Shown: positions 8,887 to 54,182, counted from the first letter of the stretch. The stretch: DNA of 64,000 nt from Bacteroidales bacterium (GCA_040772125.1 JAXGYS010000004.1:184021-248020), one strand, 5' to 3'. Program-made: numbers and translations. Notes: a model not told the origin generated them from the sequence alone.

Positions 8887-11800
8887 ATGAGTCTGTTAAA
8901 TAAACTGGTCTATTTCAGCAGAAGTGCTGAGAAAAGCGCCGACAAGCATATTGTCACGACCGGAGAGAAGCGCGGTTGGGAGGGATACTACAGGAGCCGC
9001 TGGCAATATGATAAAGTGGTAAGGTCAACTCACGGAGTCAACTGCACGGGATCTTGTTCGTGGAAGATCTATGTAAAGAACAACCTCGTAACCTGGGAGA
9101 TCCAGCAGACCGACTACCCCGAGACAAGGCCAGACCTGCCGAACCATGAGCCGAGAGGCTGCCCCAGGGGAGCAAGCTACTCGTGGTATCTGTACAGCAC
9201 GAACAGGATAAAGTATCCGATGATCCGCGGATCGCTTGTGAGGGCATACCAGAAGGCAAAAGCATCACATTCAGATCCGGTAAAGGCATGGGAAAGCCTG
9301 ATGAACGATCCCGATGTGACAAAGGATTACAAATCCGGGCGAGGCCTGGGGGGAATGATCCGTGCTCAATGGGATGAGGTAAATGAAATAATTGCAGCCT
9401 CAAATATTTACACAATAAGAAAATACGGACCCGACAGGCTTGTTGGTTTCACTCCGATACCAGCCATGTCGATGGTATCGTATGCATCGGGGGCAAGATA
9501 CATGAGTCTTCTGGGCGGACTGGTACTGAGTTTCTACGATTTCTACTGCGATCTTCCGCCGGCCTCACCGCAGACATGGGGTGAACAGACCGACGTTCCC
9601 GAGAGTGCCGACTGGTATAACTCCTCGTTCCTGATGCTTTGGGGCTCGAATGTTCCGCTGACCAGGACCCCCGACTCGCCTTTCTACACCCAGGTGAGAT
9701 ACAAGGGTACCAAGGTCATAAACATCTCGCCCGATTACAACGATGCCGCCAAATTCGCCGACCTCTGGATGAAGCCGAAACAGGGCACCGATGCAGCGCT
9801 GGGAATGGCAATGGGGCACGTGATCCTGAAGGAGTTTTACCTTGAGAAGGAAACACCCTGGTTTTACAAATATGCCATTCAGTATACCGATCTTCCCTTT
9901 CTCGTCAGGATTGAAAATAAAAACGGAAAAAATGTTCCCGGACGGATCGTAAGGGCATCGGACCTCGGCAATGATCTTGCAAAGGAAAAGAACGCGGAAT
10001 GGAAGCCGGTGATCTTTGACAAGACATCAGACGGCTTTGTGGTTCCCAACGGGACTATAGGATCGAGGTGGGATGAAAGTAAAAGATGGAACCTCGAACT
10101 TAAGGATTCGGTCAGCGGCAAGCCTGTTGATCCCCTTCTTTCCGTCCTCGACAGGAGGGACGATGTTGCTGAGGTCTCGTTCCCCTATTTCGGAGGACAG
10201 GCTTACAGGCACGAGCACTTCAATTCAACTGATCATCCCGAAATAATAACAAGGAAGGTCCCTGTTAAAAGATCCGCCGATGGAAATTTTCTATACTGCA
10301 CGGTATTTGACCTGATGGCAGCCGGTTATGGTGTTGACAGAGGACTCGATGACAGATATTCAGCAGCCGGCTATGAGGAAAACCTTCCCTATACTCCTGC
10401 CTGGCAGGAAAAGATAACAGGTGTTTCTGCATCGCAGGTAGTTTCAACTGCAAGGCAGTTTGCAGAGAATGCGGCAAAGACTTCGGGAAGGTCTATGATC
10501 ATCATCGGAGCTGGTGTGAATCACTGGTTCCATACCGACATGATATACAGGAGCGCCATCAACATGCTCATGCTGTGCGGTTGTGTCGGTCAGTCGGGAG
10601 GTGGCTGGGCTCACTACGTCGGACAGGAGAAGCTTCGTCCCCAGACAGGCTGGCTTCCCCTCGCCTTTGCGCTCGACTGGAACCGGCCTCCCCGCCAGAT
10701 GAACACAACATCCTTTTTCTACATGCACAGCGACCAGTGGCGTTACGAAAAGGTAGGGCTTTCGGAGCTTGTCTCCCCTCTTGCCGACAAGGATGAATGG
10801 AGCAAGCTGTCGATGATAGATTGCAATGTAAAAGCTGAAAGGATGGGCTGGCTTCCCTCGGGTCCGCAACTGAGCGAAAATCCTCTTGAACTGTGCAGGG
10901 AAGCCGAAAAGGAAGGGCGTGATATTGAAGAATTCATCACGGCGAAGCTGAAGAAGAACGAGCTCACCATTGCCTCAGAAGATCCCGACAATCCCAAGAA
11001 CTTCCCAAGGAACCTTTTTGTCTGGAGGTCAAACCTTCTCGGGTCGAGCGCTAAGGGAATGGAATATTTCATGAAGCATCTTCTCGGGACACAGAATTCT
11101 GTTCTTGGTGAGGATCTTAAATCACAGGGAGGGCAGCTGCCCTCAGAAGTCATTTGGCACGAGAGGGCGCCTGAGGGGAAGCTTGATCTTCTTGTCACTC
11201 TCGACTACAGGATGTCGACAACCGCACTTCATTCAGACATAATACTTCCGGCGGCAACATGGTATGAAAAGGATGACCTCAGCACTTCCGACATGCATCC
11301 TTTCATTCATCCTTTCTCAAAAGCCGTTGATCCGCTCTGGGAATCGCGTTCCGACTGGGACATATTCAAAGGGCTGGCGAAAAAGTTCTCGGAACTGGCG
11401 CCGGGTCATCTCGGAAAGGAAAAGGACGTGGTACTGCTGCCGCTTCAGCACGACACTCCGATGGAACTGTCCGAAACCACCGGAGGCCATGACTGGAAGG
11501 AACAGGGTCTCGCGCCGAAACCCGGAAAGAACATGCCTAAGCTTATTCAGCTTGTGAGAGATTATCCCGAAACATACAACAGGTTCACAACCCTGGGTCC
11601 CCTGATGGAAAAAATCGGGAACGGCTCAAAGGGAATAGCATGGAATACGGTTGAGGAAGTAGGATTCCTGAAGAAGCTGAACACGACTTCGGCACATGAA
11701 GGAGAAACAGGCGGACTGGTAAAGATCGAAACCGATATTCAGGCTGCTGAAGTGATCCTTACTCTTGCTCCCGAGACCAACGGTCATGTAGCTGTCAAGG

Positions 11801-12615
11801 CATGGGAAGCTCTTGAAAAAACTACAGGACGGGGCCACAGGCATCTTGCCGAAGGCCGCAGCGAGGAAAAGATAAGGTTTGCCGATCTCCTGCGCCAGCC
11901 CAGAAAGATAATCACCTCCCCCATCTGGAGCGGTATCGATTCCGAGGAAGTGTCGTACAACGCCGGCTATACAAATGTTCATGAACTGATACCCTGGAGG
12001 ACGCTTACCGGGAGGCAGACCAGCTACCAGGATCATCCGTGGATGCAGGCTTTCGGAGAGAACCTTGTATGCTACAAACCTCCGATAAACACCAAATCGG
12101 TGCCCGGTGTCATGGATAAACTCGGCAGTACTGATAAATATCTCATTATAAACATGATGACGCCCCACAACAAATGGACTATCCATTCATCATGGTCGGA
12201 TAACCTTATTATGCTTACACTCGGGCGAGGCGGACCGGTGGCCTGGCTGAGCGAGACTGATGCGCGCAAGATAAACCTTGGCGACAACGACTGGATTGAG
12301 GTCTTCAACAGCAACGGCGCCTCGGTTGCGCGCCTTATTGTTTCCCAGAGGGTTCCGGAAGGCGCCCTGATAATGTACCACAACCAGGAGAGAACAGTCA
12401 ACATGCCTGTTAACCAGATTAACGGCAACCGGGGAGGGGTTCATAACTCCGTTGAACGGCTGAGCCTTAAGCCCACCCACATGATAGGAGGCTATGCCCA
12501 CCTGAGCTACGGATTCAACTACTACGGGACCATAGGTTCGAACCGCGACGAGTTCGTGATAATCCGCAAGCTGAAAAAAGCGGAATGGAACGATGAAGGT
12601 TACGAGGAAAAATAA
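8887..12615 (+). CDS. narG: Respiratory nitrate reductase alpha subunit (Mo-bisMGD)
   Basis: HGVNCTGSCSWKIYVKNNLVTWEIQQTDYPETRPDLPNHEPRGCPRGASYSWYLYS is near-identical to the E. coli NarG FS0 region. Length is 1242 aa. No twin-arginine leader is present. Confidence 0.97.
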   Translation: MSLLNKLVYFSRSAEKSADKHIVTTGEKRGWEGYYRSRWQYDKVVRSTHGVNCTGSCSWKIYVKNNLVTWEIQQTDYPETRPDLPNHEPRGCPRGASYSWYLYSTNRIKYPMIRGSLVRAYQKAKASHSDPVKAWESLMNDPDVTKDYKSGRGLGGMIRAQWDEVNEIIAASNIYTIRKYGPDRLVGFTPIPAMSMVSYASGARYMSLLGGLVLSFYDFYCDLPPASPQTWGEQTDVPESADWYNSSFLMLWGSNVPLTRTPDSPFYTQVRYKGTKVINISPDYNDAAKFADLWMKPKQGTDAALGMAMGHVILKEFYLEKETPWFYKYAIQYTDLPFLVRIENKNGKNVPGRIVRASDLGNDLAKEKNAEWKPVIFDKTSDGFVVPNGTIGSRWDESKRWNLELKDSVSGKPVDPLLSVLDRRDDVAEVSFPYFGGQAYRHEHFNSTDHPEIITRKVPVKRSADGNFLYCTVFDLMAAGYGVDRGLDDRYSAAGYEENLPYTPAWQEKITGVSASQVVSTARQFAENAAKTSGRSMIIIGAGVNHWFHTDMIYRSAINMLMLCGCVGQSGGGWAHYVGQEKLRPQTGWLPLAFALDWNRPPRQMNTTSFFYMHSDQWRYEKVGLSELVSPLADKDEWSKLSMIDCNVKAERMGWLPSGPQLSENPLELCREAEKEGRDIEEFITAKLKKNELTIASEDPDNPKNFPRNLFVWRSNLLGSSAKGMEYFMKHLLGTQNSVLGEDLKSQGGQLPSEVIWHERAPEGKLDLLVTLDYRMSTTALHSDIILPAATWYEKDDLSTSDMHPFIHPFSKAVDPLWESRSDWDIFKGLAKKFSELAPGHLGKEKDVVLLPLQHDTPMELSETTGGHDWKEQGLAPKPGKNMPKLIQLVRDYPETYNRFTTLGPLMEKIGNGSKGIAWNTVEEVGFLKKLNTTSAHEGETGGLVKIETDIQAAEVILTLAPETNGHVAVKAWEALEKTTGRGHRHLAEGRSEEKIRFADLLRQPRKIITSPIWSGIDSEEVSYNAGYTNVHELIPWRTLTGRQTSYQDHPWMQAFGENLVCYKPPINTKSVPGVMDKLGSTDKYLIINMMTPHNKWTIHSSWSDNLIMLTLGRGGPVAWLSETDARKINLGDNDWIEVFNSNGASVARLIVSQRVPEGALIMYHNQERTVNMPVNQINGNRGGVHNSVERLSLKPTHMIGGYAHLSYGFNYYGTIGSNRDEFVIIRKLKKAEWNDEGYEEK

Positions 12616-41316: not shown

Positions 41317-41769
41317 AACAATGTTCAGGCAAGGCTGGAATCCAATCCGGAAAAGCTGTGGTCATTGCATCAAATGGAACTAACCGGGGGCGAACCTGAT
41401 GTTGTCGGCAATGATGACATTACCGGAATTTACACTTTTTTTGATTGTTCACCTGAAAGTACGGCCGGCAGGAGAAATGTCTGCCATGACCGTGCCGCAC
41501 TGGACTCAAAAAAGACGGCAAAACCCAAAGGCAGCGCTGTTGATATGGCTCTCTCTTTTGGTATAGAGATTCTGACAGAAGAAGAATACCGGGAGCTGCA
41601 GAACCTGAGAAGTTTCGATACAAAAACCTCGAGCTGGCTGAAGACCCCACCCGGGATCAGGAAGCTGGGAGGTGCCATTTTCGGCGACCGCCGCTAAATT
41701 CATGTCTTCATTTACCACAACGGGGCCTCATCCAAAAGCTTCATCAGTTCAATCGCTCCGGATGCCTGA
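41317..41769 (+). pseudogene. Decayed DUF4256 paralog: N-terminus missing and an in-frame TAA where the intact copy has Tyr
   Basis: ...RLESNPEKLWSLHQMELTGGEPDVVG...SSWLKTPPGIRKLGGAIFGDRR*IHVFIYHNGASS aligns with 38446-39051 (GDRRYGQVFLYHNGASS). The stop is at 41695-41697. The tail overlaps the 3' end of the minus-strand gene at 41712-42692. Confidence 0.75.
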
Positions 41770-42692
41770 GACTTTTCATTGAACAGGTCATAGGGAAGGA
41801 CCTTCTGCAGCATACCGGTTACTTCGCCAGTTTCAGGATGAAAAAAATAAGCGGAGATCAATGAGGAACTGTCAATATTGAAAGCTTCAGGATTATATAC
41901 CGTTGATCCCGGATTAATTCCTGATGCCACTCCCATGATAAAATTGCCGGCAATCCTTCCCCCTGTAGGTTTTATTGTTCTGCAATGCAAAACAACCATT
42001 AACTGATTAACAGAATCGGCATTCCCTTCAACATATGGAACTTCAGTATTAAAACCCCTCTTATAATACTTGCCGACTGAAGGAGGTATTCCGTAGTATT
42101 TGATCAGATTGGGCTTTAACGAAAGCAGATATTTTATAACCTCCCCGGGTATCTTTGCATCACCGGAAGCATCAAACAAACTCTGACCATAGAGCCGGCA
42201 CTTGTCCTTTGCTGAAATGAATTCATCGTTCAGGAGATTTGTCATGAGGGCAGAGATTTTCTCAGAATCTTCGGCGGAAACTTCATACCTGTCGAGGTTA
42301 CCAACACCTTTATGCAGGACTGCCTCAACAAAAGGGGGCATGACCAGAAGAAGGGCATCCTTTCCGGCATTGCTGGCTTTAGCACTCGGTTCTACACCGG
42401 GTATTTTCTCAAGCCTGATTATTACATCAGCCGGTGAACCTTTTCTTATCCATACCGTGTCTTCCTTATATCCTCGTTTCATTGCCATGAAAGAAACACT
42501 GTCAGCTTTTCCAAAGAAGGTAACCTTACGTGTAATGCCTTCATTTCGTGATGTATCAACATCAATATATTCAATAATGTCTCTCTGCCTTATCAGACTT
42601 CCCTCAGGATATGCCTTAATATTGTAAACAGCAGATGAGCAGCCAGCAAGAACCATTAAAAGTATAAACAGGAAAGAAGCCAGGATTTTCAT
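41712..42692 (-). CDS. Hypothetical lipoprotein
   Basis: Lipobox leader MKILASFLFILLMVLAGCSS. I recognise no family. Confidence 0.6.
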   Translation of the reverse strand: MKILASFLFILLMVLAGCSSAVYNIKAYPEGSLIRQRDIIEYIDVDTSRNEGITRKVTFFGKADSVSFMAMKRGYKEDTVWIRKGSPADVIIRLEKIPGVEPSAKASNAGKDALLLVMPPFVEAVLHKGVGNLDRYEVSAEDSEKISALMTNLLNDEFISAKDKCRLYGQSLFDASGDAKIPGEVIKYLLSLKPNLIKYYGIPPSVGKYYKRGFNTEVPYVEGNADSVNQLMVVLHCRTIKPTGGRIAGNFIMGVASGINPGSTVYNPEAFNIDSSSLISAYFFHPETGEVTGMLQKVLPYDLFNEKSQASGAIELMKLLDEAPLW

Positions 42693-42872
42693 GGTGCAGG
42701 AGTATTAAGTTAATGACTGAAATAAGGAAATTCCAGGAGAATCGCTAAAAAAACAATACCAGATTTGTTTGTCTTCATACAACTAACGTTTCATTCGATA
42801 TGAAATGAGATCAATATCATTTTCGTTACAACTTAAGCACAGATTCAGAAAAAATCATTCATTTTGTAACAA

Positions 42873-43745
42873 ATGCTGCCGTTTGACCATATCAATGACA
42901 GCGATGAACATGATTTCGGTCATTTCATTGAATCGGTTTCGGGAGGTGATGCTTATGCCCTGAAGAACCTGAATTATGTTGTGATGTCGATGCTTAAGGT
43001 ATGGGCCAGGAGAGAGAGGCAGGAACTACGGTGGATAGCAGATGGCAGCAAATGCATTGATTACGGGGTTATAGTTAAAAAAATAATTGCAGACTACCTT
43101 GAAAAATACATGCATAATACTGTTGCACATTCATTTGCAGGATTCAGGGAATATGCAGTAAATGAATTCAGGATAAGGATAAGTGCCGGTTTTGCAGAAT
43201 TTCTGAAATTGCTGAAGGAAAACAACCATAAAGCCTGGAAGATCGTCTTTGAGGATCTTCAGTCAAGGTCAGCTTCATGGTTTTATAAGCGGAATCACTC
43301 CCTCAACGGCAGTGATTATTCAGTTTTTTCTTTGTCAATGGAGATTATCTATTCAAAGCTTATGGAAAACAAGGTCACGCTAAGTGATGCTGGTTCATTC
43401 AAGTCCTTTTTTTTCAGGATACTTGAAAACAAGGTTATGGAATCTCTCAAGGATCCGTTCCGCAAGCGGTTCGTCCCTCTTGAAGAAGCGGGAATAATTA
43501 GTATATTAAATCAGGAAAATGAATATTCAGTGTCAGATGATGAAAGCATTATCACCCTTAACGGCGCCATGAAAAACCTTAAGGATGATGAAAGGCTTAT
43601 TCTCGATGAATACTATTATGGGGGGAAAAGTCTTAAGGAAATAGCCGGTGAAACAAACCAGAGGGAAGAAAACGTTCGTATCAAGAAGTTCAGGGCTTTG
43701 AAAAAGCTTACGGTCTATTTTAAAAAAGCAGGCTATGGATCATAG
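42873..43745 (+). CDS. ECF-like sigma-70 family factor with an N-terminal extension of about 110 aa
   Basis: Region-2-like segment (AWKIVFEDLQSRSASWFYKR...SFKSFFFRILENKVMESLKDPFRKR). Region-4 HTH (ERLILDEYYYGGKSLKEIAGETNQREENVRIKKFRALKKL). An 11-nt overlap (ATGGATCATAG) links it to the next gene. Confidence 0.7.
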   Translation: MLPFDHINDSDEHDFGHFIESVSGGDAYALKNLNYVVMSMLKVWARRERQELRWIADGSKCIDYGVIVKKIIADYLEKYMHNTVAHSFAGFREYAVNEFRIRISAGFAEFLKLLKENNHKAWKIVFEDLQSRSASWFYKRNHSLNGSDYSVFSLSMEIIYSKLMENKVTLSDAGSFKSFFFRILENKVMESLKDPFRKRFVPLEEAGIISILNQENEYSVSDDESIITLNGAMKNLKDDERLILDEYYYGGKSLKEIAGETNQREENVRIKKFRALKKLTVYFKKAGYGS

Positions 43746-44505
43746 GGAAGCAGTCGACTGGAATATTGCCGAACTTTATTTGAGGCAGGAACTGTCGCCG
43801 GAAGATGAGGCGGCATTTGAGGAACATTTGCTTCATTGCGAAGAATGTCGTGAAGATCTCAATGAGCTTGAAGCTGTAATTGAATCCGTGGAAAGATACC
43901 ACAGAAACAGGTTTCAAAATGTTGCTGAAGAAAGCCCTTCCTTCAGGCGAAGCCTGATTTCCGGAAAGGTCTTTTTAAGAATTGCCGCAACCATATTGGT
44001 GATTGCCGGCCTGGCCGGTATTACAGACCTTCTGATTCGGGGCGACCAGTTTTCAAAACACTCGCCGGTTGCATTAGAAAGAGATGTTGAAAAGACAAAT
44101 GATACGGCATCAGTCCCTGAAACGAATGAGATCGCAGCCAGCCATGCCGTGAAAAACGTTCCTCAGCCTGATTCGCCTGGCCCTTATGACGGAAATTTCA
44201 CTCCGGACTCCTTTCTTGAAAGCATCATAAACAATAATTTGCGTGCAAATGATTTCAGAATCGTCCGTCCGTCAAATGATACTCTGACTGCAGTACCTGT
44301 TTTTGAATGGAACTACATGGAAAAAGAATTGCTGGTACTTGTTGTTTACAATAACAGGGAGCAGGAAATTTTTAAGAATTCTGTTGCCAATAAAACAAAA
44401 CCCCTATTGGAACTGGATCCGGGGCTGTATTACTGGCAGTTGCAGGACGAGGATGAAGTTCTGGCAACGGGCAGGTTCACCTATCTTCCGGCTGACGGCC
44501 AATGA
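43735..44505 (+). CDS. zf-HC2 anti-sigma factor, single-pass, with an extracytoplasmic C-terminal domain of about 150 aa
   Basis: HLLHCEECREDLNELE (zf-HC2), TM segment VFLRIAATILVIAGLAGITDLLI, and translational coupling to the sigma gene. Confidence 0.75.
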   Translation: MDHREAVDWNIAELYLRQELSPEDEAAFEEHLLHCEECREDLNELEAVIESVERYHRNRFQNVAEESPSFRRSLISGKVFLRIAATILVIAGLAGITDLLIRGDQFSKHSPVALERDVEKTNDTASVPETNEIAASHAVKNVPQPDSPGPYDGNFTPDSFLESIINNNLRANDFRIVRPSNDTLTAVPVFEWNYMEKELLVLVVYNNREQEIFKNSVANKTKPLLELDPGLYYWQLQDEDEVLATGRFTYLPADGQ

Positions 44506-47500
44506 CGGCAAAAGCTCCCCACATCAGGGGAAAAGATGTATCGGGATTGCCTATCATATCAAGCTTTACTTTTCTTAATGCAGTTTCAAAGTCATAGCCT
44601 GTAAATACATGACTGTAAAAGTCACGCATGAACATCATGGCATTCTTGTCCCCGACTTTCCAATAGGAGAACAATACATTTTTTGCACCTGCAGAAAGAA
44701 ATGCCCTTACCAGTCCGATGATTCCCTCTCCTTCCTCAAGCTTACCCATTCCTGATTCACAGGCGCTCATAGTAACCAGATCCGCGTCGATGCTCATCGG
44801 ATAGATTTCCCATGCATGCAGAATGCCCTCTACATTCCTGTCAGGCATATTGTCTTCTGATGTGCCGCCTTCCGAATAGTCTGAAAAAAGCAGTCCTGAA
44901 TATTCTGGCAGCGGATCATCATTTACCAGATGCGTGGCTATGTGTACGAACCTGTGATTTGCGATATTTTCCTTCAGGTTTTTCTCTGATGCAATCTGTC
45001 CGGTGTAAATATCAGCTCCCAGACCGTACCTTAGAGATAAGGCTTTCAGACTGTCAGTTTCTTCGAGTGAGAAGGGCAATTCGGCGTAGGACCTGATAGG
45101 ATCACGGTTGGAACTGTTCGTTTGACCTTTATAATCAGATTCATATATTGCCGCAGGTTTATTTCCGTCGTTCCCTGTGCTCCGGTAATTGAAAACAGGG
45201 GCAAAGGCAAGCAGGCGGTTATTTTCAATCTTCATTGGAGGATTGTCCGCTGCCCATAACCCTGCACTATAATGGTAAGTTATCCCGAAATCGTTGATCA
45301 GATAATCCTGATGACTGAAATCGCTGAATTTCCCCGCCGGTTTATATGTCCGGGCAAGCGTTTCAAATGGCAGATAAAGCAGAATCTTGTCGGGAATGAT
45401 TACAAGTTTTTCCTTGTCTTTCAGAACAGGTTCAATATCTCTGATTGCAAGGTTATAAATTTCATGTCCGAGTAAAGTCACCCTGTCTCGGTCATATTTC
45501 CTGAGTGCTGAAATATAGTCCTCAACCTTTTGTTTCAATGCTCCCGGCCGGTCCAGTCTGGTTTTTTTCAAAACCAGGGTGTCATCCGATATTACAAATG
45601 TGAACAGGGAAGTATCATTCGCGTAATAGCTTATCAGTGCTGTTCTTGGTCCGAGATTCCTGATGAGAGTATCATACAATTCCTTGCCTGACGGAAATGA
45701 CATCATCTTTTCAGTAACCGAATAATGGTTTATGGTATCATTGACCGCACGCAGGGAAATGAGAAGGCTGTCAATGCGGTACGGATGGATGCCTGATCCT
45801 GGTTTTTTCTGTTTATCCTGCATCCGCAGATAATCTATATAACCTGTAAGATTTCTTCTTCTGTACAGAAGCGAGTCTGGTATATCAGCATTCGTTTTGT
45901 CCCTGTACCTGAAAACAAGATTTTGAAGCAATGATGCTTTATTCAGTTCAGAAAACTCCAGGGCCTTGAACAGGTGTTCCCTGTTGCCCGATATCATGAA
46001 AAGCCTGTAAGCAGCATCCACACCGTAATATGTCTGAGCCGAAAGTTCGTTAAGCAGTCCTATCTTTGTTTCTTCAAGCAGAAAATCCGATACTGCAGAC
46101 TGCGTCAATGATTTTACAAGATCAAAATTAATAGTTATATCCCTTAATGCACTGATATTGCCGGTTTTCAGGTATTCGCCGTATTTAAGTCTGCTTATAT
46201 CAATAAGAGAAGATGCAAACAATGGTCCGTCTATGACCAATGATGTTTCAATTCCGTTGTTATCTGCTTCACCCTGATAGTTTGCCCATAATGATTTATT
46301 ATACATTATTGTTGCAGAATCCGGGTGACCAGTCCTTTCCAGAACAATTCCCATTTCTTTAAAGGCAGATGAAAGACCTGGATGACGGGAAGGATATATT
46401 GTTTTTTTTATTTCAAGGGCTCTTTTCATGAAAAATAATGCTGAGTCGGGATAAGGACCTGACAGCATGTTGTGTGCAATTCTTGTATAAAATCCGGCAG
46501 TCATGGGATGTGACTCTCCGTAGATCGTCTCTGACATTGCAAGGCCAGATTTGTAATCGTTTAGTTCCCGCACGTGATCATTCAGCTGTCCGTAAGCCAT
46601 TCCCCTGTTCAGAAAGTCTTCAACAACAGCGGGATTGTTCTTTTCAATGATGCAGGTATCGATATGAAGGGCCCTGTTATAATAGTACAGTGCAGTATCA
46701 TTTTGATCTTTAAGAAGAAATATATCTCCCATTTTCCGGTAGTTTGATGCCAGATCAGGATGCATCTCCCCAAAGGCTTTCCTGTTTTTTTCACGGCTGA
46801 TGCGATAATAGGCAAGTGCCAGATCGATATCACCCTTTTTCTTGTAGATAGTCCCTATATTATTGTACGATCTTGGAATTCCCGGAGCATCGGGTCCCCT
46901 GGCCAGTCTGAGCGAAAGGGCTTTTATAAGGTATTTAAGGCAGTTATTATAGTCACCGAGATCATCATAGCCGGCACCGACATTATTATATGCAGAAGCA
47001 GTGTAAGGGCTATCCTCTCCCAGCGTCCGTAATAGTATTTCAAGTGCTGCCCGGAAATAATCCAGGCCTTCCCGGTACCTTCCAGTTTCACGTAAGAGTA
47101 CCCCGATGTTAGTATAGCTCATGGCAATATCCGTATGATCTTCTGAGCCATGCAATGCCAGGCGGATATCAAGAGCCTTCCGGTGATGGGACAGGGCGGT
47201 TTCATTATCCCCCATAGCCATATATACATTGGCCAGGTTATTAAGGCTCAGGGCTATATCTTTATGATTCGGGGGCAGCCTGACAAGCCTTATTTCATAG
47301 GCTTTGCGGTGTAATATCATGGCTGTATCCCACATTGCCTTTTCCATGAACAGAACCCCAAGGTTATTGTAAGCTTCCGCTGTCAGAGGGTGAAACTTGC
47401 CACTGGTGTTTTCCCGTATGCGTGCCACCCTGCCAAAATAATACTCACAGCTGTCATACCGGCCAAGATGATACGCTATTGATCCAAGAGCATTGTAATC

Positions 47501-48109
47501 GGAAGCGAAATTGCCGTCCTCTGCCATGAAATAGTTTTTTCGAATGTCAATACTTCTCTCTATATTCTTCCTGGCTGAATCGAATAATCCTCTGTTACTT
47601 TGAATAATCCCGATACCGCGATAGATGTCGGCGACAGCAATGTTATCCGCGGTGTTCGGGTTCTTATATATATCAAGAGACTTTTTAAACCATATCAGTG
47701 CAGAATCAAGTTTCCTCTCTTCCAGATAAATATTTCCCAATTTGAAATAACATTCCCCCGTTGCGGATGACTTCTCTCCGAATTTATCGATGCTAAAAGC
47801 TATATTTTCTTTTGCCTCCCTGATAAGTCCTTCATTATAACCTGCATTGATTTTTGCCGAAATGATCCTGTTACTGCATTCAAGGTATTTCTTAAAGGAC
47901 CTTTTTTTGAGATATTCACGGCCAGCTGACTGGTAATAGAAGACAGCACTGTCATACACAGCTTCACGATCAAAATCCATAGCTTTTCTGAAGAGACTGC
48001 CGGCATACAGGGTATCTTTTGCATGAATTTTCATATCAGCCGCAGCTGCAATACCAATTGCCGGAAAAAGCAGAGTGGCTATGATTACAAAGACTGACCT
48101 GATGATCAT
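44477..48109 (-). CDS. Exported TPR-repeat CHAT-domain (caspase-like) protease, 1210 aa
   Basis: N-terminal signal-like MIIRSVFVIIATLLFPAIGIAAAA. About 700 aa of TPR-like repeats (recurring A..YNNLG..Y...G.Y..A...Y..AL.I). C-terminal CHAT domain with His (FVHIATH) and Cys (LVTMSACESG; Cys codon 44759-44761). Confidence 0.9.
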   Translation of the reverse strand: MIIRSVFVIIATLLFPAIGIAAAADMKIHAKDTLYAGSLFRKAMDFDREAVYDSAVFYYQSAGREYLKKRSFKKYLECSNRIISAKINAGYNEGLIREAKENIAFSIDKFGEKSSATGECYFKLGNIYLEERKLDSALIWFKKSLDIYKNPNTADNIAVADIYRGIGIIQSNRGLFDSARKNIERSIDIRKNYFMAEDGNFASDYNALGSIAYHLGRYDSCEYYFGRVARIRENTSGKFHPLTAEAYNNLGVLFMEKAMWDTAMILHRKAYEIRLVRLPPNHKDIALSLNNLANVYMAMGDNETALSHHRKALDIRLALHGSEDHTDIAMSYTNIGVLLRETGRYREGLDYFRAALEILLRTLGEDSPYTASAYNNVGAGYDDLGDYNNCLKYLIKALSLRLARGPDAPGIPRSYNNIGTIYKKKGDIDLALAYYRISREKNRKAFGEMHPDLASNYRKMGDIFLLKDQNDTALYYYNRALHIDTCIIEKNNPAVVEDFLNRGMAYGQLNDHVRELNDYKSGLAMSETIYGESHPMTAGFYTRIAHNMLSGPYPDSALFFMKRALEIKKTIYPSRHPGLSSAFKEMGIVLERTGHPDSATIMYNKSLWANYQGEADNNGIETSLVIDGPLFASSLIDISRLKYGEYLKTGNISALRDITINFDLVKSLTQSAVSDFLLEETKIGLLNELSAQTYYGVDAAYRLFMISGNREHLFKALEFSELNKASLLQNLVFRYRDKTNADIPDSLLYRRRNLTGYIDYLRMQDKQKKPGSGIHPYRIDSLLISLRAVNDTINHYSVTEKMMSFPSGKELYDTLIRNLGPRTALISYYANDTSLFTFVISDDTLVLKKTRLDRPGALKQKVEDYISALRKYDRDRVTLLGHEIYNLAIRDIEPVLKDKEKLVIIPDKILLYLPFETLARTYKPAGKFSDFSHQDYLINDFGITYHYSAGLWAADNPPMKIENNRLLAFAPVFNYRSTGNDGNKPAAIYESDYKGQTNSSNRDPIRSYAELPFSLEETDSLKALSLRYGLGADIYTGQIASEKNLKENIANHRFVHIATHLVNDDPLPEYSGLLFSDYSEGGTSEDNMPDRNVEGILHAWEIYPMSIDADLVTMSACESGMGKLEEGEGIIGLVRAFLSAGAKNVLFSYWKVGDKNAMMFMRDFYSHVFTGYDFETALRKVKLDMIGNPDTSFPLMWGAFAVIGRQPEDR

Positions 48110-48257
48110 TTGGATATGTTTTTAGCCTTATCTGAATTACACTAGGGCCCGGTACTGCAAAAAACAAATGGCTTTAACCAATCTGCCCCGGCAGGGCGAT
48201 CAGATAACCGTTACACTAAATTATAAAAAATATTGACCTCTAATGTGAAGAAAACAA

Positions 48258-48285
48258 CTATATCCTGCAGAATGGCAGGATATAG
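48258..48285 (-). terminator. Intrinsic terminator: 11-bp perfect stem (ctatatcctgc / gcaggatatag), 6-nt loop, U-rich tail on the minus strand
   Basis: I verified complementarity. It lies 31 nt downstream of the stop of the gene at 48316-49002. The minus-strand tail reads ttgttttctt. Confidence 0.6.
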
Positions 48286-48315
48286 ACTTCCGGGCGGAAG
48301 ATAGCCGAAGGGGAT

Positions 48316-49002
48316 TTAACGGGAAAGCTGGAAGAAGTAGCCTGCTGAGAGATAAATACCATAGGAAACTCCACTGAACTCAGGTTCGAGTGACGCCGGC
48401 TGTACGATTGCAGGTGATTTTCCAACCCTGATATTACCTGCTACTACATCCTCACTCATGGGTCCGAAATCAAGTCCCACAGGCACACTAAGTGTTATTT
48501 TTAGTGCATTGCTTAATGAATAACGCAAACGAGGTATTATATCCAATCCTATAATTCCGTAATAACCGCCAAGCCTGAGTTTAGTAACGTCATCCTGATC
48601 TTCAGGATTAAGATATATTGAAGATACATGAAAACCGAGTGCGCTTCCCGCTTCAATCTTTTCATTTAAAGAGAACTTGTATCCTATCCCTAAAGCATTG
48701 AAATCGAGAGCGTATGCTGAAGTATAATCAGAAAGGTCCTGTGTTGTTTCTCCGAGTTTGACATTACCTGTATTAAACAACATGGCAAGTGACAAATCGA
48801 AATAAAGCTTGTTCCAGGAGAGTTCACCGGAAATATACATACCCGTACCTGGAAAAGAAAGGCTTTGCTTTTCGCCGGATTGAGTGAAAGAGTGCGAAAC
48901 CTTCCCGATTCCTCCTCCTGCTGATAATCCCAGCACTGCCTGGGGGAGAGCCCTGTTTCCTGCAAATAAAACCACTATTACCGTCATGATGAGAATTTTC
49001 AT
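48316..49002 (-). CDS. Hypothetical outer-membrane beta-barrel protein
   Basis: With the start at MKILIMTVIVVLFAG there is a signal peptide. The sequence has an alternating beta-strand pattern and Gly/aromatic-rich strands. The track ORF extends to 49086. Confidence 0.55.
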   Translation of the reverse strand: MKILIMTVIVVLFAGNRALPQAVLGLSAGGGIGKVSHSFTQSGEKQSLSFPGTGMYISGELSWNKLYFDLSLAMLFNTGNVKLGETTQDLSDYTSAYALDFNALGIGYKFSLNEKIEAGSALGFHVSSIYLNPEDQDDVTKLRLGGYYGIIGLDIIPRLRYSLSNALKITLSVPVGLDFGPMSEDVVAGNIRVGKSPAIVQPASLEPEFSGVSYGIYLSAGYFFQLSR

Positions 49003-49475
49003 TAAACCCGGATCAGGTTTTAATGAAAATTTTTTGCCTTTTTTAATACTGAGTTTGTTTCCCGGCCTTTCAAATATGCATTCCATATGCCAAAAGAATT
49101 TAGTTTCCCTATGAAATGGATCAATTCCTTAATTTGTTACAATGCATAATGAAAAAATATACACCCTGTATCTGCAGAATACCAAGTCATTTGACAACAA
49201 AGGTCAGTAACCTGATTTACAACACACTGCAGGCAGGTTTGGGATATGCAGAAGCAACTGAAAAGTACGACATTGACGAGGAATCGTTCTCCGGATATGC
49301 TTTTGGAGGCGGTCTGGGTCTGGCTTATTTCATCACCGGAAATATTTCGATCGATCCTGGAATTCAAGTGACCAGTACAAAACTAACCTACTCGGAAGAC
49401 GCAAAAGTTCGGGTATCATACACGGCGACAATGTAGCCTGTTGTTTTATCTTCTCTTTCATGAACGCATAACAAT

Positions 49476-52941: not shown

Positions 52942-53061
52942 TTGGTGGTGTATTAGTAATGCAAATTACAATTTTTCGGTATCACGTTCATCATCCCCTC
53001 CTGAAAAAGCCCGATATAAAACCATAGACTCAAATTAAAAGATAAAAAGGGAATTTATTCA

Positions 53062-53107
53062 ATTACGTAATTTATTACGTAATTAATTACGTAATAAATT
53101 ACGTAAA
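53062..53107. repeat. Four tandem 12-bp units, each with the 10-bp palindrome ATTACGTAAT (core TTACGTAA at 53063, 53075, 53087 and 53099)
   Basis: Read directly: attacgtaattt attacgtaatta attacgtaataa attacgtaaaca. It lies in the divergent intergenic region between the DoxX gene (-) and the DUF2807 gene (+). Confidence 0.95.
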
Positions 53108-53405: not shown

Positions 53406-54182
53406 ATGAAAAAGGTTACTTTCATAATATTCATACTGGCCGTGTCAGCTGCATCATGCATCAGGGACCTGATCTGTATTGAAGGGAATAGGATCATTGA
53501 AACAGAATCCCGGAACACATCTTCATTCAACCAGATAGAAAACAGTACCGAAGCGGATGTTATTTACATCCAATCTGACATTGTGTCCATAACCGTCAGG
53601 GCCGAATCAAATTTGCTGGGTCATATTGAAACCGAAACCTTTAACGGTAAACTCAAAATAGGTACAGACAGACATGTCAACTGCATGGATTACAATGAAA
53701 GGCCCGTCATTACGGTAACATCACCTGAGTTGAAGAATGTTGAGCTGAGCGGATCGGGCAACCTTTTTGCAGATATATTGTCGGGCAACTCGGTAATTAT
53801 CAAGCTCAGCGGCTCCGGAGATGTTGTTGCTGAAAGCCTTTCATGCGACGACCTTTCCGTAGCGATTTCCGGATCAGGTGACATTGAAATTTCTGAGGCC
53901 TCATGTCAGGATGCGGATATTAACCTGAGCGGTTCCGGAGATATAGACATCACGGGAGAGAGTGACAGAGGCCATTTCAGGATTTCGGGAAGCGGAGATA
54001 TTAATTCCGGTGGATTTCAGCTTAATAATGCCACTGAAACTATTTCCGGATCAGGGAATATTTTCACCTGGGTAGTAAACAGCCTGACGGCTGTTATCTC
54101 AGGAAGCGGGAACATTTATCTCAAAGGAGATCCTTCCATAAATCAGAATTTATCCGGTTCAGGAAGAGTTATAAAATACTAG
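53406..54182 (+). CDS. DUF2807 / head-GIN-domain putative adhesin-like lipoprotein
   Basis: Leader ...LAVSAASC. Repeated LSGSGD/ISGSGD/ISGSGN beta-helix motifs occur throughout. Confidence 0.85.
   Translation: MKKVTFIIFILAVSAASCIRDLICIEGNRIIETESRNTSSFNQIENSTEADVIYIQSDIVSITVRAESNLLGHIETETFNGKLKIGTDRHVNCMDYNERPVITVTSPELKNVELSGSGNLFADILSGNSVIIKLSGSGDVVAESLSCDDLSVAISGSGDIEISEASCQDADINLSGSGDIDITGESDRGHFRISGSGDINSGGFQLNNATETISGSGNIFTWVVNSLTAVISGSGNIYLKGDPSINQNLSGSGRVIKY

Follow-up and report, generated by a model that had tools for sequence, protein, structure and literature searches.

In the sigmaE-RseA-RseB-DegS-RseP pathway of E. coli, a single-pass anti-sigma factor holds a sigma factor of the extracytoplasmic function (ECF) type, a periplasmic protease serves as the trigger and the output consists of envelope proteins. 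For the Bacteroidota, a phylum that predominates in the gut and in marine habitats, we are aware of no report of a canonical sigmaE/DegS pathway. Caspase-like proteases that join tetratricopeptide repeats (TPRs) to a CHAT domain have recently been linked to sigma release in two settings: biochemically in type III-E CRISPR systems and, as a proposal from structure, in DdvA of Myxococcus. In type III-E craspase, the TPR-CHAT protease Csx29 cleaves the inhibitor Csx30 in a flexible loop and releases an ECF-like sigma factor that autoregulates the locus, in a cytoplasmic process that depends on Cas7-11 and is activated by RNA (PMC10028731). In the DdvA/DdvS system of Myxococcus xanthus, DdvA carries a zinc-binding anti-sigma (ZAS) domain, a transmembrane (TM) segment and a periplasmic TPR-CHAT region in one chain, and its CHAT domain has been proposed to self-cleave a flexible linker as a site-1 protease ahead of RseP (PMC11506125). 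Until it is removed, the TPR-CHAT region sterically blocks RseP, with its active site in a resting, incomplete state; the authors found no such fused proteins outside Myxococcota and a single species of Comamonas, and what DdvA governs is an island of antiviral defence genes (CBASS / type III-B CRISPR) (PMC11506125). The proposal is not easily tested in DdvA, because a single membrane protein is protease and substrate at once and its signal is not known. Described here is a locus in a 64,000-nucleotide stretch of DNA from a Bacteroidales bacterium (GCA_040772125.1 JAXGYS010000004.1:184021-248020; hereafter the window, with positions counted from its first letter), in which genes for an ECF-like sigma factor and a membrane anti-sigma factor converge on a gene for a predicted exported TPR-CHAT protease.

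An earlier note, made from this sequence alone, had drawn attention to the trio and had stated the type III-E precedent of Csx29 and Csx30 accurately (PMC10028731). The open reading frame (ORF) listing and a direct reading of the sequence place all three genes, and both overlaps between them, where that note had put them (Table 1). The 3' end of the sigma gene overlaps the start of the anti-sigma gene by 11 nt (ATGGATCATAG), while the convergent 3' ends of the anti-sigma and TPR-CHAT genes share 29 nt (44477-44505); the latter overlap leaves no space for a terminator between the two genes, and a consensus scan found no terminator-like site within it. Both arrangements are general in the family, with overlaps of 11-35 nt between sigma and anti-sigma genes in 7 loci, and of 14-41 nt between anti-sigma and TPR-CHAT genes in 7/7 loci; in Flavobacteriaceae loci, the latter two genes overlap by 21 nt. 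The statement that no cas genes are present also holds, since cas families are missing among the neighbours in the window and in related loci, the tandem-repeat/CRISPR scan of the window yielded no CRISPR array, and the PADLOC scan for defence systems matched nothing but a generic TPR model. An Rfam scan of the window returned nothing relevant.

Judged by gene neighbourhoods, all three genes of the trio belong to a real, evolutionarily conserved functional unit. Six of six non-redundant metagenomic loci reached through the sigma factor (43-58% identity; L001, L002/L003, L004, L006, L007 and L008) have the same layout of sigma followed by anti-sigma, with TPR-CHAT converging from the opposite strand, and their flanks are entirely different from one another. 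The layout is also found beside a trp operon in a locus reached through an anti-sigma factor of only 28% identity. A further scan covered one genome per GTDB species, with an alignment of the CHAT half as query and the neighbours assigned by family hidden Markov models and Pfam. It returned 15 loci, all from Bacteroidota (Bacteroidales and Flavobacteriaceae), of which 14 could be assessed: an anti-sigma homologue adjoins the CHAT gene in 13 and a sigma gene in 12. Gene order varies among them, being convergent with a 21-nt overlap in Ichthyenterobacterium, Winogradskyella, Psychroserpens and Kordia, co-directional from sigma through anti-sigma to CHAT in L021 and L023, and divergent in L017. 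Beyond this phylum, a KSB1 contig carries the full triad and an Ignavibacteriaceae contig carries the CHAT/anti-sigma pair.

The reverse test gave a similar picture. A metagenome scan seeded with nothing but the C-terminal 'GLYYW' domain of the anti-sigma factor (10 sequences) retrieved 44 loci, 21 of them non-redundant with enough flank, and a CHAT domain is encoded beside the GLYYW anti-sigma gene in about 14 of the 21. In a distant GLYYW subfamily, the upstream partner of about 245 aa weakly matches TIGR02937 in 8/8 members; it was negative by hhalign against the sigma family of the window and in a PDB profile search. These weak but consistent matches alone identify the partner as a very divergent ECF-like sigma factor.

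Several loci depart from the common layout. In L029 (3408-7564), a 198-aa sigma-like protein, a TPR-CHAT protein without a signal peptide, an 87-aa soluble HxxxCxxC protein and a 117-aa protein are encoded together, with no cas genes within 4 kb, and the group could be a cytoplasmic variant. In the Psychroserpens locus (L015, 7605-10655), a gene for a 1016-aa exported protein lies between TPR-CHAT and the anti-sigma/sigma pair, which are contiguous in relatives. L004 has a second, ordinary ECF sigma gene (11395-11991; 198 aa, Sigma70_r2 + r4) about 1.1 kb upstream of TPR-CHAT.

By profile and catalytic dyad, the third gene of the trio encodes a caspase-like (clan CD) CHAT protease that is predicted to be exported. 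Its CHAT domain scores 153.7 bits against PF12770, for which the cut-off is 24. The motifs HIATH and SACESG occupy residues 1056-1060 and 1115-1120, the latter making C1117 the catalytic cysteine, so that the intact dyad and the cysteine named in the earlier note both stand. The dyad is invariant in 7 orthologues and 16 relatives, down to 24% identity, and H1056, H1060 and C1117 are each invariant in the relatives compared. By contrast, the TPR region had been overestimated at about 700 aa; recognisable TPRs cover roughly residues 71-524 (about 450 aa), and residues 525-880 are conserved without matching any family. The proteins of the window and of six orthologues all begin with a signal-like segment (basic n-region, hydrophobic core, small residues at -3/-1), as do all full-length relatives from Bacteroidota, and no further hydrophobic or TM segment was found in this protein or its six orthologues. 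Sec export is therefore a straightforward prediction. The earlier note had read the N-terminus as a signal and had held that a cytoplasmic location would count against its proposal; export is predicted in every orthologue. The TPR-CHAT gene of L025 (1360-4560) is divided into two ORFs of 474 and 581 aa by a frameshift or pseudogene formation or by a sequencing error, and that of L024 (1385-4543) is intact at 1052 aa.

Turning to the anti-sigma factor, the sequence points to a single-pass class I ZAS protein (zf-HC2), with sigma binding and inhibition predicted on the basis of the gene arrangement. Residues 14-39 match zf-HC2 (PF13490) with a score of 30.1 bits, above the cut-off of 22.2, and H31-x3-C35-x2-C38 is invariant in 14 anti-sigma sequences. 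There is one TM segment, with the C-terminus predicted to lie outside. The extracytoplasmic part of about 150 aa that had been noticed at the outset comprises an immunoglobulin (Ig)-like domain preceded by a disordered stretch of some 47 aa, the linker; in the AlphaFold2 (AF2) model, pLDDT is above 90 for the helical anti-sigma domain, about 30 for the linker and 74-86 for the beta domain. The beta domain is conserved, carries the motif GLYYWQLQ...TGRF and corresponds to no Pfam family, and a Foldseek search with the model gave only generic matches, either Ig-like or resembling the C-terminal domains of type IX secretion substrates (best E 0.014). The partners of TPR-CHAT proteins fall into two classes with a common N-terminal anti-sigma domain. 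Class A, found in Bacteroidales, KSB1 and Ignavibacteriaceae, has the GLYYW domain at its C-terminus, and class B, found in the Flavobacteriaceae loci and L022, has C-terminal TPRs. Cultivable bacteria with a class B triad include Ichthyenterobacterium magnum DSM 26283, Kordia aestuariivivens and Winogradskyella ouciana. The anti-sigma family amounts to 14 clusters, and its sigma counterpart to 11 clusters among 5.8 billion proteins.

The sigma factor is ECF-like by its domain content, consisting of sigma2, a linker and sigma4, without sigma3 or sigma1.1, as in the ECF class (group 4), together with an extra N-terminal domain. Pfam detects Sigma70_r4 at residues 232-279 but not Sigma70_r2; the ECF superfamily model TIGR02937 is matched at 49.2 bits (cut-off 42.9) in residues 161-281 only, and no ECF subfamily model of NCBIfam comes near its cut-off. 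An AF2 model built from 10 homologues has a mean pLDDT of 79, and Foldseek aligns its sigma2 and sigma4 with the ECF sigma factors SigL, RpoE and SigH. The unusual N-terminal extension, first put at about 110 aa, is indeed present, with its length corrected to about 117 aa by alignment and model. Residues 9-115 are well predicted (pLDDT about 90) as four helices and a hairpin, and family alignments reveal invariant Trp and Phe positions. Foldseek offered no explanation for this domain, and phmmer found 6 matches in 1.84e9 representative proteins, essentially all from the same sigma family. Residues 21-55 are also matched (E 1.7e-10) by P0111, a giant protein of 3779 aa, which may reflect a shared short helical motif or be spurious. 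The main text of the ECF re-classification does not mention CHAT (PMC7826278).

The unit is larger than first described, with sequence comparison extending it to a five-gene cassette that has a promoter-like motif in common. On one side, divergent from the sigma gene, lies a lipoprotein gene whose product matches nothing in Pfam or NCBIfam; its orthologues in L001, L002 and L006 are 37-61% identical, and the lipobox (LAGC/LSSC/FAGC/MVAC then SS) is conserved in all four proteins. On the other side, a gene for an outer-membrane protein (OMP)-like beta-barrel has a weak OMP_b-brl match in Pfam and a TDE1717-family match in NCBIfam. Its true start is likely an internal Met ahead of the signal peptide MKILIMTVIVVLFAGNRALPQA, and the gene is linked to the module in the window, L001, L002 and L004. 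In other loci, one or two small exported OMP-like genes accompany the lipoprotein gene. These genes (for proteins of about 170 aa and about 200-240 aa), which stand between lipoprotein and sigma genes in the loci compared (L001, L002, L006-L008), are missing from the window and L009, and tblastn found no remnants of them elsewhere in the window.

The motif is a bipartite element in the intergenic region between the sigma and lipoprotein genes, where it is conserved in eight loci as two inverted copies; the GAxATG and CGTTACA columns are invariant in the alignment of these 8 loci. Copy 2, aligned across 7 loci, is degenerate in the clade of the window. Copy 3 has counterparts upstream of the OMP orthologue in L001 (score 14.1), L002 (36.6, a training member) and L009, and a weight-matrix search of the window gave one further match, which is probably due to chance. 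Read as a -35 element TGTAAC, a spacer of N17 and a -10 element CAT(T/A)TCA, every copy is aimed at a gene, and this is the only reading for which that is so. The opposite orientation, 'Y' (-35 TGAAAT, -10 CGTTAC), was considered since the sigma ATG of the window would then fall downstream of the start site; it was rejected as the general reading because copy 3 would, in the window and in L001, L002 and L009, then fire away from the OMP gene, and in L002 its transcript would enter a gene in antisense. The shared motif suggests that the sigma factor may autoregulate its own operon and drive the lipoprotein and OMP genes, its dependence on this sigma factor being a prediction. In the window (42865-42900), and at the equivalent positions of L001 and L002, a TCATTTTG box abuts the sigma ATG within the copy 2 spacer; we take it to resemble the Bacteroidetes housekeeping -7 element. 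A 106-aa ORF (49116-49436, plus strand) starts within motif copy 3 and encodes OMP-like beta-strand motifs (GYAFGGGLGLAYF...) without a signal peptide; part of its region (49230-49405) is 92.6% identical to L009, and it may be a gene remnant.

Table 1. Positions of the cassette, its genes and their domains, and the regulatory elements in the window (PWM, position weight matrix score)
Feature	Position	Strand	Basis or remarks
Cassette overall (lipoprotein, sigma, anti-sigma, TPR-CHAT, OMP, promoter-like motifs)	41727-49240	.	five-gene block
Lipoprotein gene	41712-42692	-	326 aa; divergent from sigma; putative regulon member
Promoter-like motif copy 1	42798-42834	-	TGTAACG-N17-CATTTCA; toward lipoprotein/small-OMP operon; PWM 33, training member
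Promoter-like motif copy 2	42861-42897	+	TGTAAC-N17-CATATCA; toward sigma/anti-sigma; PWM 13.8, outside training set
Sigma gene	42873-43745	+	290 aa
Sigma N-terminal orphan domain	42873-43223 (aa 1-117)	+	alignments, AF2 model
Sigma2	43227-43451 (aa 119-193)	+	AF2 model, Foldseek
Sigma disordered linker	43455-43535 (aa 195-221 in model)	+	AF2 model
Sigma4	43536-43727 (aa 222-285)	+	AF2 model, Foldseek
Anti-sigma gene	43735-44505	+	256 aa
Anti-sigma domain	43735-43926	+	Pfam zf-HC2, AF2
HLLHCEEC motif of anti-sigma	43825-43848	+	zf-HC2 motif
Anti-sigma TM segment	43957-44043 (aa ~75-103)	+	TM prediction
Anti-sigma hypervariable disordered linker	44044-44184 (aa 104-150, ~47 aa)	+	alignment, AF2
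Anti-sigma Ig-like 'GLYYW' domain	44185-44490	+	alignment, AF2
TPR-CHAT gene	44477-48109	-	1210 aa
CHAT domain	44498-45472 (aa 880-1204)	-	PF12770
Cys1117	44759-44761	-	residue numbering checked
His1060	44930-44932	-	residue numbering checked; His1056 likewise invariant
TPR matches	46538-47899 (aa 71-524)	-	Pfam, NCBIfam; TPR_12 in 7 stretches
TPR-CHAT signal peptide	48038-48109 (aa 1-24)	-	N-terminal features
Sigma70-like promoter match before CHAT gene	48249-48220	-	consensus scan
Terminator-like hairpin after OMP gene	48258-48285	-	11-bp stem + T tract; consensus scan
OMP-like beta-barrel gene	48316-49086	-	annotated 256 aa; putative regulon member
Promoter-like motif copy 3	49109-49145	-	TGTAACAAA-N-CCATTTCA; directly upstream of OMP gene; PWM 15.6, outside training set

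The reading favored here, at a probability of about one half, is that the secreted TPR-CHAT protein acts as an envelope sensor and as the site-1 protease on the anti-sigma factor, and that a site-2 step then releases the sigma factor. At rest, the zinc-finger domain of the single-pass anti-sigma factor would keep the ECF-like sigma factor at the inner membrane, and the anti-sigma factor would present its flexible linker and Ig-like GLYYW domain in the periplasm. The separately encoded TPR-CHAT protein, secreted to the same compartment, would bind an envelope signal through its TPR array, whereupon the CHAT domain would cut the periplasmic part of the anti-sigma factor, most plausibly in the disordered linker, with the Ig-like domain serving as a docking handle for the protease. 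A general site-2 (RseP-type) protease and cytoplasmic proteases would clear the remaining stub, and the freed sigma factor would transcribe its own operon, the divergent lipoprotein/small-OMP operon and the OMP gene from TGTAAC-N17-CATTTCA. The cleavage step is suggested by the genetic linkage, by a shared predicted compartment (signal peptides on one side, an anti-sigma C-terminus outside on the other) and by the invariant dyad. It is further suggested by the substrate-like nature of the linker, which is hypervariable, has a pLDDT of about 30 and resembles the DdvA linker proposed as a CHAT target (PMC11506125). Finally, there is a fusion precedent in DdvA and a biochemical one in Csx29/Csx30.

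Several observations weigh against this reading. Phaeodactylibacter has a TPR-CHAT gene with neither a sigma nor an anti-sigma neighbour, and about 7 of the 21 GLYYW loci have no CHAT domain within 2-6 kb, which means that the coupling, although strong and ancient, is not obligatory. The sigma/anti-sigma operon of L021 and L023 includes the CHAT gene, a position that suits a regulon member as well as it suits a regulator. Since class B anti-sigma factors have TPRs in place of the GLYYW domain, the Ig-like domain cannot be a universal docking handle, and its Foldseek matches are non-specific. In the window and in L001, the only in-frame sigma ATG sits within the spacer of motif copy 2. No M50/site-2 protease appears among the annotated neighbours in the window or in related loci, although no search aimed at M50 was made. 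Cleavage, binding and export of the proteins in the window are themselves predictions, and CHAT-mediated cleavage is a hypothesis for DdvA too (PMC11506125).

Of the alternatives to cleavage by a dedicated sensor, the one that survives best, though still unlikely, makes TPR-CHAT an output of the switch, a protease that would work in the periplasm on the processing or quality control of other envelope proteins such as the small OMPs or the lipoprotein. Proximity would then result from co-regulation or co-inheritance, and the anti-sigma factor would be inactivated by another site-1 protease or by a conformational signal. Such an effector would sit well with CHAT as third gene of the operon in L021 and L023, with its place downstream of the motif-bearing OMP gene in the window, L001 and L002, with the several exported cassette proteins that could be substrates, and with the GLYYW anti-sigma/sigma pairs that have no neighbouring CHAT. 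However, no motif copy precedes the CHAT gene in the five loci where it stands alone (L004, L006, L007, L008 and L013), and the CHAT gene of the window is set apart from the OMP gene by a terminator-like hairpin and by a promoter match of its own; both point to CHAT as an upstream component. In addition, the lipoprotein and small-OMP genes differ between loci whereas the CHAT/anti-sigma pair is constant, and the DdvA fusion joins TPR-CHAT to an anti-sigma factor, not to an output.

Less probable still is a role as a non-cleaving co-sensor or guard that acts as RseB does on RseA, in which the TPRs would bind the periplasmic domain of the anti-sigma factor and gate another site-1 protease or RseP, leaving the catalytic site for autoprocessing or unused. 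TPR arrays do serve as protein-binding scaffolds, and the position of the gene beside that of the anti-sigma factor is like that of rseB. The TPR-CHAT region of DdvA is likewise a steric block to RseP with a resting, incomplete active site (PMC11506125). On the other hand, the dyad and its surrounding motifs are invariant down to 24% identity, which argues for retained catalysis. It is highly improbable that TPR-CHAT is cytoplasmic and cleaves either the N-terminal extension of the sigma factor, as in a pro-sigma factor of the BldN type, or the cytoplasmic domain of the anti-sigma factor, as a cas-less copy of the Csx29/Csx30/sigma switch. The conserved 117-aa orphan domain, the existence of BldN-type processing (PMC7826278) and the L029 protein without a signal peptide, encoded between a sigma-like gene and that of the 87-aa HxxxCxxC protein, would be in keeping with it, but N-termini are signal-like in 7/7 orthologues and all full-length Bacteroidota relatives, and the CHAT-linked sigma factors of Flavobacteriaceae lack the extension. 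The chance that the genes are neighbours by accident, or merely through common descent and without functional coupling, is negligible: many loci are related by descent and their counts are not independent events, but the linkage persists through complete flank turnover, in three different gene orders, with either class of anti-sigma factor and in three phyla, and the comparative data effectively refute this alternative.

The cassette also has an inheritance of its own. Over 7516 nt, the block is 96.7% identical to L009 from a 'Rikenellaceae' metagenome-assembled genome (CAYSBL010000044), in contrast to syntenic flanks that are 74-78% identical and partly rearranged; in L009, the methyltransferase gene is on the other side of the cassette than in the window. 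The earlier note's impression that the region is AT-rich proved sound, with a GC content of 0.421 for the block against 0.463 for the remainder of the window, the lowest of 226 segments of the same size. The simplest explanation is that the entire module was recently exchanged horizontally or recombined, although a chimeric assembly of the L009 genome could also account for the contrast in identity. The borders of the cassette have no mobility genes, and the direct and inverted repeats found there are short, chance-like matches, so that no mechanism of mobility can be named. Elsewhere in the window there are tandem repeats of the heptamers CTGGGTG (876-984, 15.7 copies) and CAACTAG (1063-1108, 4.6 copies), as well as 3.8 tandem copies of a palindromic 12-mer, AATTACGTAATT (53061-53106); these copies, which may form an operator array, precede by some 300 nt a gene (53406-54182) for a DUF2807 (adhesin head-like) protein.

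Taken as a whole, the comparisons suggest that the module is an envelope pathway widespread among Bacteroidota and inherited both vertically and horizontally. A broader proposal, which we would advance only tentatively, is that it represents an undescribed class of envelope pathway in Bacteroidota, Ignavibacteria and KSB1. Free periplasmic TPR-CHAT proteins would be dedicated sensors and site-1 proteases for ECF anti-sigma factors, many with a previously unrecognised GLYYW recognition domain; the split form would be ancestral to DdvA and a cellular counterpart of Csx29/Csx30/sigma, carried on a mobile 7.5-kb cassette with its own regulon. The analysis newly defines the periplasmic GLYYW domain, the orphan N-terminal domain of the sigma factor and a candidate promoter motif with its regulon. 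Since the split module places protease and substrate in two genes, a simple in-trans cleavage assay becomes possible.

With respect to known systems, the split arrangement of Bacteroidota is described nowhere in the literature that was searched, and no NCBIfam model names any part of the module. Like the type III-E locus, that of the window links a TPR-CHAT protease genetically to an ECF-like sigma factor and its inhibitor. It differs in that neither Cas7-11 nor a CRISPR array nor Csx30 is present in the window or related loci, in that the protease has a signal peptide, and in that the inhibitor is a membrane ZAS anti-sigma factor unrelated to Csx30; a search of the PDB with the CHAT profile did not reach Csx29. 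With the RseA/DegS pathway the locus shares a single-pass anti-sigma factor, a periplasmic trigger protease (putative here), a gene for an accessory periplasmic protein beside the anti-sigma gene, and envelope outputs (predicted here). The candidate site-1 protease, however, is a Cys/His enzyme of caspase fold with TPR sensors rather than a PDZ serine protease, and its gene is a fixed companion of the sigma/anti-sigma pair, which that of DegS is not. The view that such a module would be distinct from the classical site-1/site-2 cascade finds no support, as the DdvA/DdvS precedent suggests that CHAT would replace the site-1 protease only and that an RseP-type site-2 protease would still be needed (PMC11506125).

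The closest likeness is to DdvA/DdvS itself. Both have an N-terminal HxxxCxxC domain, a single TM segment, a juxtamembrane linker that is long and flexible, a cognate ECF-type sigma factor encoded next door, and, on the periplasmic side (by prediction in the window), a TPR-CHAT region that includes a His/Cys dyad. The only PDB match of the CHAT profile is 8ROT (8rot_B, a 991-aa CHAT-domain protein that fits DdvA), and it is weak, extending across 80 residues that surround the catalytic Cys (E 0.011); a single-sequence search of the PDB with the CHAT half gave no match. The differences are that TPR-CHAT at this locus is a separate, predicted-secreted protein encoded on the opposite strand, with 0/84 of the TPR-CHAT relatives retrieved being fused to zf-HC2, and that the anti-sigma factor bears a GLYYW domain instead. 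In addition, the sigma factor has an extra N-terminal domain, the predicted regulon consists of OMPs and a lipoprotein rather than a CBASS/CRISPR island, and the split form belongs to Bacteroidota, Ignavibacteria and KSB1 as opposed to Myxococcota. By analogy, the locus is best described as a split, two-gene version of DdvA/DdvS, its closest precedent, without the defence genes, which indicates that the logic of a protease combined with a sigma switch is not confined to antiviral defence.

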